From a virus (lineage: Duplodnaviria > Heunggongvirae > Uroviricota > Caudoviricetes), in IMG/VR virus record IMGVR_UViG_2698536681_000002: a DNA stretch of 9,937 bases; one strand, 5' to 3'. Position numbers and translations under genes: made by a program. This document shows, piece by piece, positions 5,808-6,156 of this stretch. The first letter of the stretch is position 1. The number at the start of each line of letters is the position of its first letter. The notes under the pieces are model-generated. The model did not search any database. It saw only the letters and a program-made list of their open reading frames with translations, and was not told where the DNA came from.

Positions 5808-5882
5808 TGGAGCGGGCAGCGGGAATCGAACCCGCATCATCAGCTTGGAAGGCTGAGGTAATAGCCATTATACGATGCCCGC
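5808..5882 (-). tRNA. tRNA-Gly, anticodon UCC, 75 nt
   Basis: Minus-strand sequence GCGGGCATCGTATAATGGCTATTACCTCAGCCTTCCAAGCTGATGATGCGGGTTCGATTCCCGCTGCCCGCTCCA folds by hand into a cloverleaf with a 7-bp acceptor stem, TTCGATT T-loop, anticodon loop CTTCCAA and encoded CCA. It closely resembles E. coli glyT as I recall it. Confidence 0.88.
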
Positions 5883-5885
5883 ATA

Positions 5886-5961
5886 TGGTGCCGACTACCG
5901 GAATCGAACTGGTGACCTACTGATTACAAGTCAGTTGCTCTGCCTGCTGAGCTAAGTCGGC
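5886..5961 (-). tRNA. tRNA-Thr, anticodon UGU, 76 nt
   Basis: GCCGACTTAGCTCAGCAGGCAGAGCAACTGACTTGTAATCAGTAGGTCACCAGTTCGATTCCGGTAGTCGGCACCA: perfect 7-bp acceptor stem, GCTC/GAGC D-stem, anticodon loop CTTGTAA, one A-C mismatch in the T-stem, encoded CCA. Confidence 0.82.
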
Positions 5962-5963
5962 GC

Positions 5964-6040
5964 TGGCCCACCACCGAGGACTCGAACCTCGCACCGTCAA
6001 CTTAGAAGGTTGATGCTCTATCCGGATGAGCTAGTGGTGG
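5964..6040 (-). tRNA. tRNA-Arg, anticodon UCU (reads AGA/AGG), 77 nt
   Basis: CCACCACTAGCTCATCCGGATAGAGCATCAACCTTCTAAGTTGACGGTGCGAGGTTCGAGTCCTCGGTGGTGGGCCA: all four stems pair perfectly, anticodon loop CTTCTAA, encoded CCA. It differs from host argU as I recall it, consistent with a phage-type tRNA. Confidence 0.85.
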
Positions 6041-6041
6041 T

Positions 6042-6118
6042 TGGTGGCCCTTGCTGGACTTGAACCAGCGACCTGGCGATTATGAGTCGCTCGCTCTGAC
6101 CAACTGAGCTAAAGGGCC
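6042..6118 (-). tRNA. tRNA with CAU anticodon (Met, or Ile2 if lysidine-modified; ileX/ileZ-like), 77 nt
   Basis: GGCCCTTTAGCTCAGTTGGTCAGAGCGAGCGACTCATAATCGCCAGGTCGCTGGTTCAAGTCCAGCAAGGGCCACCA: cloverleaf with anticodon loop CTCATAA. It resembles E. coli ileX and the Stx-phage ileZ type as I recall them. Confidence 0.85.
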
Positions 6119-6127
6119 GGAGGCAGA

Positions 6128-6156
6128 ATAATAACCATATGTCATCACATCTGCAA
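6128..6156 (-). promoter_or_regulatory. Candidate sigma70 promoter for the tRNA array
   Basis: On the minus strand: TTGCAG (-35, weak), 17-nt spacer, TATTAT (-10), ending 9 nt before the 5' end of the first tRNA. Confidence 0.3.

Follow-up and report, generated by a model that had tools for sequence, protein, structure and literature searches.

Four tRNA genes packed head to tail occupy the late-operon leader of a lambdoid, SfII-like prophage, recorded in IMG/VR as IMGVR_UViG_2698536681_000002 (Caudoviricetes), from which one stretch of 9,937 bases (hereafter the window) was analysed by sequence comparison. They probably form, although this is well short of certain, a promoter-equipped tRNA operon that adds scarce sole decoders and is expressed both in the lysogen and in late infection. 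Late-leader tRNA cassettes of lambdoid phages have long been known and the exact array is already annotated in public genomes, and in this sense it is an ordinary prophage feature. What is new here is its anatomy, namely the composite origin of the array, a conserved candidate promoter of its own behind a terminator-like hairpin, and mobility as a unit. The chief interest lies in the anticodon and stem polymorphisms across the family rather than in the window's own copy.

Anatomy and identity of the four tRNAs

The window was searched with ARAGORN and with Rfam RF00005 (gathering score 29 bits). ARAGORN called exactly four tRNA genes, all on the minus strand and all with an encoded CCA: tRNA-Ile2 with the anticodon CAU (6118-6042; Rfam 70.5 bits), tRNA-Arg with UCU (6040-5964; 56.4 bits), tRNA-Thr with UGU (5961-5886; 69.8 bits), and tRNA-Gly with UCC (5882-5808; 64.9 bits). 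The Rfam E-values range from 1e-10 to 1e-14, and the spacers between the genes are, in order, 1, 2, and 3 nt. All four acceptor stems are paired at 7/7 positions, the T-loops read TTCRAnT, and U8 and G18G19 are in place; imperfect stem pairs are few and are also seen in host genes or in ileZ. A first-pass annotation, made from the letters alone, had described four CCA-encoding cloverleaf tRNAs lying head to tail and had named tRNA-prediction software as the check. All four loci were called, with Rfam scores of 56.4–70.5 bits and none of them pseudogene-like, and the observation of a four-tRNA array is confirmed. A prophage attachment-site duplicate was rejected, for all four genes are full-length and sit within the prophage, with Q on one side and the lysis genes on the other. 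Antisense Rfam matches (Plastid-ycf2, below the gathering score) were discarded as artefacts of tRNA-like structure.

The CAU tRNA is identical to Stx-phage ileZ at 74/77 positions (96%), to ileY at 71/77 (92%), and to the elongator gene metT at 54/78 (69%). It carries the pairs C4:G69 and C5:G68 (acceptor GGCCCTT/AAGGGCC), where metT has U4:A69 and A5:U68, and its anticodon loop is that of ileY. The 4:69 and 5:68 pairs are major identity elements for E. coli TilS (PMC11947777). Considering these pairs, the likeness to ileZ and ileY, and the label tRNA-Ile that PGAP gives to the identical gene, the tRNA is predicted by every available sequence criterion to be an Ile2-type, lysidine-dependent AUA decoder, in line with the earlier suggestion that the CAU species probably reads AUA.

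The tRNA-Arg(UCU) matches Stx argN (UCG) at 64/77 positions, argU at 58/79 (73%), and Stx argO (UCU) at 46/77. Its acceptor is CCACCAC/GTGGTGG (C1-G72), all of its stems are fully paired, the D-loop ATCCGGATA supplies G18, G19, and A20, the anticodon loop is CUUCUAA, and the discriminator is G73. Arginyl-tRNA synthetase (ArgRS) recognizes A20, C35, U36, and a purine at position 73, and the gene has all of these by sequence. To judge from the alignments, this tRNA is a non-host, phage argN-type scaffold bearing the anticodon that argO has in Stx phages. The acceptor CCACCAC had been remarked on as unusual for a host tRNA, and rightly so, with a C1-G72 pair and just 73% identity to argU; the oddity follows from the argN-type scaffold.

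The other two members are close to host genes. The tRNA-Thr(UGU) agrees with K-12 thrU at 74/76 positions, both differences (T16C and T20C) falling in the D-loop, and the tRNA-Gly(UCC), earlier called glyT-like, equals K-12 glyT at 75/75. On this comparison the array is a composite of phage-lineage Ile2 and Arg genes and a host-derived Thr-Gly unit. The previous description of it as the ileZ-argN-argO cluster extended by Thr and Gly has to be revised: argO is absent (46/77 being background), the Arg gene is an argN-type body with UCU, and Thr-Gly is a separate pair of host derivation.

The host operon differs from this pair in its layout. The order in K-12 is thrU, 8 nt, tyrU, 116 nt, glyT, 6 nt, thrT, and tufB, so that thrT follows glyT, whereas the phage genes are 3 nt apart, tyrU is absent, and the flanks are unrelated to the host operon. 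A simple direct capture of a host thrU-glyT segment was therefore rejected, as tyrU and 124 nt of spacer are gone. A scan of 185,579 species-representative genomes for Thr and Gly genes separated by 0-12 nt returned the direct junction at 9 places only: three in E. coli ECMA0423, three in S. flexneri SFBU1023, and one each in C. braakii, E. hormaechei, and Photobacterium sagamiensis. The 2 places inspected closely are tRNA arrays of the window's family. In addition, the 3-nt Thr-Gly spacer is kept in nearly all related arrays and in phage JLK-2012 (Asn-Thr-Gly). The rarity of the junction together with the kept spacer points to one capture event followed by spread, in which the unit would have been taken from an enterobacterial thrU-tyrU-glyT operon with loss of tyrU.

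The array of Photobacterium sagamiensis JAMM2327 (L019 575-950) reads Ser(UGA)-Thr(UGU)-8nt-Gly(UCC)-Asn(GUU). Its Gly equals E. coli glyT at 75/75 positions and its Thr is 1 base off thrU, which is surprisingly close for a member of the Vibrionaceae.

Candidate promoter and terminator of the cassette

A consensus scan placed TTTGCA-18-TATTAT at 6157-6128 on the minus strand (9/12 matches), with an alternative register in which the -35 element TTGCAG (6156-6151) is separated by a 17-nt spacer from the -10 element TATTAT (6133-6128). A further 9 nt separate the -10 element from the mature 5' end of the first tRNA, and the predicted start is at about 6120-6122. The match is weak when taken alone, with 8-9/12 to the consensus and four sites in the region against 1.6 +/- 1.1 in shuffles. 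A footprint across relatives is more informative. Anchored on the first tRNA, 61 distinct upstream sequences were clustered at 85% identity into 15 types, which share a TTGCA block (-38 to -34), 17 variable bases, TATTAT (-15 to -10), and 9 bases to the 5' end. TATTAT and TTGCA are each found in 10/15 types, the former exactly, and the variants TAATAT, CAATAT, and TATCAT retain A2 and T6. The mean column conservation is 0.80 for the -35 and 0.84 for the -10 element, compared with 0.55 for the spacer and 0.42 further upstream. The conserved hexamers amid diverging spacer and flanks support a dedicated sigma-70 promoter-like element ahead of the array, as well as the candidate promoter of the first-pass annotation. 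The top promoter-like match of the region, TCGGCA-16-TATAAT at 5894-5867 on the minus strand (10/12), was dismissed as a by-product of tRNA sequence because it is contained in the Thr and Gly genes and turns up at every locus that has them.

Upstream of the promoter lies a terminator-like hairpin at 6232-6205 on the minus strand (AAACCCGCCGATGAGCGGGTTT), with an 8-bp stem that includes 5 GC pairs, followed by the T-run TTTTTTTAT. Homology starts at this hairpin in four upstream contexts (the window, E. coli VL40, FDAARGOS_944, and S. flexneri), with conserved stems and variable loops. VL40 and FDAARGOS_944 have it right behind Q-type genes, a position in which it is tR'-like. Occurring in such varied contexts, and twice right after Q, the hairpin belongs to the cassette and not to the ORF6N-domain gene that precedes it in the window. 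Its former designation as the ORF6N terminator was thus mistaken, as it travels with the tRNAs. On the same evidence, the cassette is a unit that moves between different Q and late-gene contexts.

These features bear on the question of whether the genes do anything at all. They could be a functionless passenger, that is, neutral hitch-hikers or recombination debris at a lambdoid mosaic junction in slow decay, and mosaic breakpoints do flank the cassette. Chimeric or mutated copies are also found in relatives, such as an Ile/Thr fusion in E. hormaechei, a 'Val(UAC)' gene in RMDEC332, and T-loop singletons. However, all four genes of the window are intact, the 311-nt array is identical in dozens of independent records, the promoter hexamers are kept while spacer and flanks diverge, and the 1-2-3-nt spacing recurs in 98 arrays, all of which makes this explanation very improbable.

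Proposed supply of scarce decoders

The favoured explanation is that the operon supplies scarce decoders. The layout would consist of the terminator hairpin, a sigma-70 promoter of its own, and four head-to-tail tRNAs, carried as cargo in the late-operon leader. The integrity of the genes, their homologies, the conserved promoter blocks, the position, and the codon enrichment are shown by the analysis; the transcription starts, the processing route, the modification, the aminoacylation, and the fitness benefit are inferred. In the lysogen, host RNA polymerase would use TTGCAG-17-TATTAT and start 2-4 nt ahead of the first tRNA. Once the prophage is induced, polymerase modified by Q would arrive from the late promoter, pass the upstream terminator, and transcribe the array along with the genes for lysis and the head. 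RNase P would cut the 5' end of each tRNA, leaving 3' trailers of 1-3 nt that exonucleases would trim to the encoded CCA, and TilS would turn C34 of the CAU tRNA into lysidine. The products would add decoders for AUA (Ile2), AGA/AGG (Arg UCU), ACA (Thr UGU), and GGA/GGG (Gly UCC), of which Ile2 and Arg would be phage-lineage tRNAs shared with Stx phages.

In E. coli, Ile2, Arg(UCU), and Gly(UCC) come from one or two genes each and are sole readers of an NNA codon. Similarly, thrU is the sole ACA decoder in MG1655 (PMC12445682). The strong conservation of the cassette and its retention across different Q and upstream contexts were counted in favour of a supply function. In a codon test, ~2,300 codons of the window's confident genes were compared with 14,832 codons of 42 K-12 genes. 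The codons AUA, AGA, AGG, ACA, GGA, and GGG together reach 60.2 per 1000 in the window and 24.9 in K-12 (odds ratio (OR) 2.5, p = 3e-17), and with conservatively trimmed gene starts they rank 1, 3, 4, 9, 10, and 11 of 61 by enrichment.

Several results weigh against this explanation. Rare codons that the array does not serve (CGG, CGA, CCC, TCA, and TGT) are similarly enriched. The late genes, which lie downstream of the array, show less enrichment (OR 2.0) than the early ones (3.25), and within the late genes AUA, AGA/AGG, and ACA are individually not significant. The demand is also small, with 16-17 AGA/AGG/AUA codons of each kind in ~2,300. The singleton disruptive mutations of related arrays (T-loop changes, a 1-nt acceptor deletion, and the Ile/Thr chimera) suggest that selection is not strict everywhere. 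Furthermore, Lys UUU, Thr UGU, and Asn GUU, the tRNA types that phages carry in this slot, coincide with the targets of the PARIS and P2-OLD systems discussed below, a match for which codon supply alone offers no explanation. The codon-usage check proposed by the first-pass annotation thus succeeded in part: the served codons are enriched 2.5-fold, yet the enrichment is non-specific and weaker in late than in early genes, and it is therefore consistent with supply but does not discriminate it from the alternatives.

The same mechanism may have another beneficiary. In a lysogenic-conversion scenario, a constitutive array would aid host translation of AT-rich acquired genes, such as virulence genes and those of other prophages, with selection acting at the level of the bacterium. 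A promoter of its own behind a terminator would imply Q-independent expression in the repressed prophage, and in window-identical records terminator-like hairpins lie ~260 and ~610 nt after the Gly gene (a region masked in the window), giving a promoter-genes-terminator layout. Genomes with the window-type array also often hold multiple copies, with 42 places in 16 genomes and up to 5 per genome, although these may simply reflect several related prophages in one genome. This scenario overlaps heavily with decoder supply, differing in the beneficiary only, and a benefit to the host as the distinct reason for the array is improbable.

If decoder dosage is the function, the array is a natural 'rare-codon helper'. 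The helper plasmids pRARE and CodonPlus provide extra argU-, ileX/Y-, glyT-, and thrU-type tRNAs against AGA/AGG, AUA, and GGA limitation. The logic is the same as that of the array, except that the plasmids are artificial and include leuW and proL, which the array lacks.

Relation to known late-leader cassettes

The slot is the one that ileZ-argN-argO occupies in Stx phages, as stated earlier: the array comes after Q and a terminator and before the lysis genes, all on the same strand. In the Stx cluster (933W type; Stx2a_F349, AP012530.1), which likewise lies between Q and downstream late genes, the first tRNA is 74/77 identical to that of the window and the second is built on the same C1-G72 scaffold (64/77). 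The TTGCA-17-TATTAT block stands 9 nt upstream of ileZ, CCA is encoded, and the spacer between Ile and slot 2 is 1 nt. The differences are that the Stx cluster has argO and UCG in slot 2, whereas the window has UCU, no argO, and the thrU/glyT-derived pair, and that stx genes rather than lysis genes follow downstream.

Other relatives are the Ile2-Lys(UUU)-Thr-Gly arrays of E. coli lambdoid prophages (for example phage PhiR47_1, PV340566.1), present in ~590/5,426 complete E. coli genomes. They share the four slots, the spacers, the promoter block, and an identical Gly, with ~94% overall identity. Unlike the window, they have UUU with C33 and U73 in slot 2 (66/77 to the window's Arg), a Thr equal to thrU without T16C/T20C, and an Ile2 variant of 76 nt.

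Phages 21, Sf6, and BTP1 carry tRNA-Asn and tRNA-Thr(UGU) after tR' and before the holin, again in the late-operon leader and with UGU in the Thr gene. The annotated order in phage 21 is Q, pR' with its Q-binding element, tR', tRNA-Asn, tRNA-Thr, and holin. Its Thr21 is distinct from the window's Thr (52/77), with the anticodon arm GUCGC/GCGAA, no CNG motifs, and 4 pairs, which is the form resistant to P2-OLD. The phage 21 pair has no annotated promoter to itself, and tR' lies too close to the first tRNA to leave space for one.

Distribution and sister alleles

The family was surveyed in 5,426 complete E. coli genomes, an array being counted as homologous when at least 80% of the 311 nt was covered, and in the first 120 listed IMG/VR contigs with the slot-2 scaffold. 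Homologous four-tRNA arrays, most of which have Lys(UUU) as their second gene, occur in 603 of the E. coli genomes. In 9 of the complete genomes the 311 nt are matched at 100% identity, and the exact sequence is found in 28 of the 120 listed contigs as well as in at least 3 further NCBI assemblies. The window-type Arg allele accounts for the 16 E. coli genomes and 42 places mentioned above. Among the 120 listed contigs, 66 have Ile2-Lys(UUU)-Thr-Gly, 33 have Ile2-Arg(UCU)-Thr-Gly, 7 have Ile2-Arg(UCU), and 5 have the Stx type, Ile2-Arg(UCG)-Arg(UCU). The anticodon on the slot-2 scaffold thus varies between phages (UCG, UCU, or UUU). Arg-type and Lys-type arrays constitute two linked haplotypes, which differ in the Ile2 D-loop, in slot 2, and at positions 16 and 20 of Thr. 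Three arrays each are present in S. flexneri SFBU1023 (L014, L017, L018) and E. coli ECMA0423 (L015, L016, L020), and Arg-type and Lys-type arrays can coexist in one genome, in different prophages.

The UUU allele of slot 2 (L007 1595-1671; L016 1403-1479) is 66/77 identical to the window's Arg and represents the commonest form of the array, at 72 of the 120 listed IMG/VR loci. Its anticodon loop CCUUUAA has C33 instead of the near-universal U33, its discriminator is U73, and its stem is unlike the AriB site at positions 39-41. The same anticodons have also arisen on thrU-derived bodies recoded at position 35. One such body reads UCU in phage SerU-LTIIb (L143 1122-1197; called Arg, without A20), and others, called Lys, read UUU in one IMG/VR array and in E. 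coli H66 and H67, where slot 2 is Arg(UCU). The recoding of thrU is a second, independent route to these anticodons.

Positions 42 and 43 of the Thr gene are changed together in several relatives. G42U/U43C is found in VL40 (L011 5329-5404), RMDEC332 (L009 1770-1845), and JLK-2012 (L142 1184-1259), and G42C/U43C in one IMG/VR Lys-type array. Both double changes abolish the 3' CNG motif and leave 3 anticodon-stem pairs, which fits the two-factor rule of P2-OLD resistance given below. The G42T/T43C genes of VL40 and RMDEC332 had at first been taken for decay, an interpretation withdrawn because the same change occurs in the divergent JLK-2012 and fits that rule. The Thr gene of JLK-2012 is itself chimera-like, with a phage-21-type 5' half and a thrU-type 3' half, and receives no ARAGORN call.

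Two further genes of the family are irregular. In E. hormaechei B17-3 (L013 6268-6342), the shared TAGCTCAG box joins the 5' acceptor strand GCCCTTT of Ile2 to a thrU body, slot 2 is deleted, and the acceptor stem is unable to pair; the chimera is the footprint of recombination between adjacent tRNA genes. The 'tRNA-Val(UAC)' of RMDEC332 (L009 1849-1919) is a glyT copy that has two anticodon-loop substitutions and lacks 1 nt of the 3' acceptor strand, for which decay or an assembly error is the probable cause.

Counter-defence as an alternative

In a different explanation of the array, the phage tRNAs would replace host tRNAs cut by nucleases of competing elements, such as P2 OLD, P4-borne PARIS/AriB, PrrC, or HepS-like enzymes, so that the lytic cycle is completed or the lysogen is protected. 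In earlier work, P2-OLD was shown to be lethal through cleavage of tRNA-ThrU at paired CNG motifs, after C28 and C40, and resistance to require both an altered CNG motif (28-30 or 40-42) and a shortened anticodon stem (PMC12445682). AriB of PARIS cleaves at U36AAUC|A41, between positions 40 and 41, in Lys(UUU), Thr(UGU), and Asn(GUU) (PMC11464382, PMC12409363), and several Thr, Ile, and Ser tRNAs are substrates of HepS from Gifsy-1 (PMC13043305). Rescue from P2-OLD is provided by phage tRNA-Thr(UGU), among others by the one that phage 21 has in the same slot (PMC12445682), and the AriB targets are also the types that temperate enterobacterial phages carry here. Within the present family, the slot-2 scaffold is non-host, the sister Lys(UUU) has C33 and a stem that departs from the AriB site, the relatives' Thr alleles altered at 42 and 43 match the two-factor rule, and other arrays contain thrU bodies whose anticodon has become UUU or UCU.

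The anticodon arm of the window's Thr, ACUGA/UCAGU, is that of thrU, with both CNG motifs, A37, and 5 pairs, so the OLD-resistance features are absent; it also reads U36AAUC|A41 as in the host, without the substitutions that would confer AriB resistance. The Gly retains the paired CNG motifs and A37. Since the cleavage motifs are kept, the Thr is predicted to be as sensitive as its host counterpart, and the Gly probably so. Over-expression of host thrU gave little or no protection against P2-OLD (PMC12445682), and of 107 Thr copies in the census ~105 have a host-like anticodon arm. The Arg and Ile2 of the window have neither the CNG nor the AriB motif, and Arg, Ile2, and Gly are not reported AriB targets. 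A literature search for a nuclease specific for tRNA-Arg(UCU) or tRNA-Ile2 found none, which also counts against counter-defence. By these motifs, the window allele is predicted not to be a resistant counter-defence tRNA, although a non-host Arg scaffold could in principle evade a nuclease of tRNA-Arg(UCU). A counter-defence role is plausible for some alleles of the family and is not the best explanation for the window allele; as an account of the array as a whole it appears unlikely.

A broader version would make the late-leader slot of temperate enterobacterial phages a rapidly re-programmable counter-defence cassette instead of an aid to codon usage. Point changes would toggle the non-host argN-type scaffold between UCG, UCU, and UUU, and captured thrU copies would be either recoded (to UUU or UCU) or altered in the stem at 42-43 so as to escape the Toprim nucleases of P2 and P4 (OLD, PARIS). 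The window would then represent one state, whose Arg(UCU), and possibly Ile2, would serve as insurance against a further anticodon nuclease. This version is doubtful. The family varies mainly in one anticodon (UCG/UCU/UUU) and in the Thr anticodon stem, positions that the work on P2-OLD and PARIS shows to matter. If counter-defence is true for some alleles, the family would offer a natural allelic series for the tRNA conflict of temperate phages with P2/P4, and it could help to explain which lambdoid prophages of polylysogenic Shigella and E. coli are inducible. For the window itself, decoder supply remains the preferred explanation.

Genomic context of the array

The packaging and head genes of the window are 93-95% identical to those of Shigella phages SfII and SfIV. 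Three assemblies (GCA_002224625.1, GCA_020874455.2, and GCA_040189005.1) share the array and are 100% identical to the window wherever it is unmasked; in the window-identical records L152, L148, and L150, the identity is 100% over 7413-5745. All features lie on the minus strand, beginning with a DnaB-type helicase (9885-8353), RusA (8099-7728), and the late antiterminator Q (7759-7352; Pfam Phage_antitermQ, E = 2.7e-52). A look-up of the Q protein returned short contigs only, which did not include the array.

Between Q and the tRNAs, a promoter-like site TTGACC-18-TATATT was found by consensus scan at 7347-7318, followed by the Rfam matches c4-a1b1 RNA (7324-7272), isrK RNA (7311-7235; 77.5 bits), whose terminator lies at 7256-7240, C4 antisense RNA (7209-7126), and sRNA-Xcc1 (6992-6909). 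By analogy with the phage 21 leader and with StxS of Stx phages, the 7347-7318 site and the isrK terminator are the best candidate for, and likely to be, the pR'/tR' of the prophage. In Stx phages the pR'-tR' leader yields the StxS RNA upstream of the tRNAs (PMC7873438), and isrK occupies the place expected of such a leader RNA. Together, the four RNA matches (7324-6909) form a P1-type immI-like antisense module in front of the antirepressor-like ORF6N-domain gene (6871-6308; 187 aa as called in window-identical records; Pfam ORF6N, E = 1.5e-20).

Downstream of the array, the lysis genes holin (start masked), lysozyme (from 5166), and Rz extend over ~5381-4460. The window is N-masked at 4461-4880 and 5350-5744, in parts of the lysis region, and the second run starts 63 nt past the array. 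The stretches that match the masks in L152, L148, and L150 are 414 and 647 nt long, compared with 420 and 395 nt, so that either the masks are not length-preserving or the source of the window differs there. Long open reading frames spanning the N runs were rejected as artefacts. Just before the masked run and 35 nt downstream of tRNA-Gly, a perfect 14-nt palindrome (ACACAATATTGTGT) at 5760-5773 could be a protein-binding site.

The remaining genes are an HNH endonuclease (4159-3809), the small and large terminase (3696-1463), and the portal (1360-113). The HNH gene stands directly upstream of the small terminase, as in HK97-like packaging modules, and its exact 116-aa protein occurs in 6,686 blocks of a protein-position index, indicating that this module is extremely widespread.

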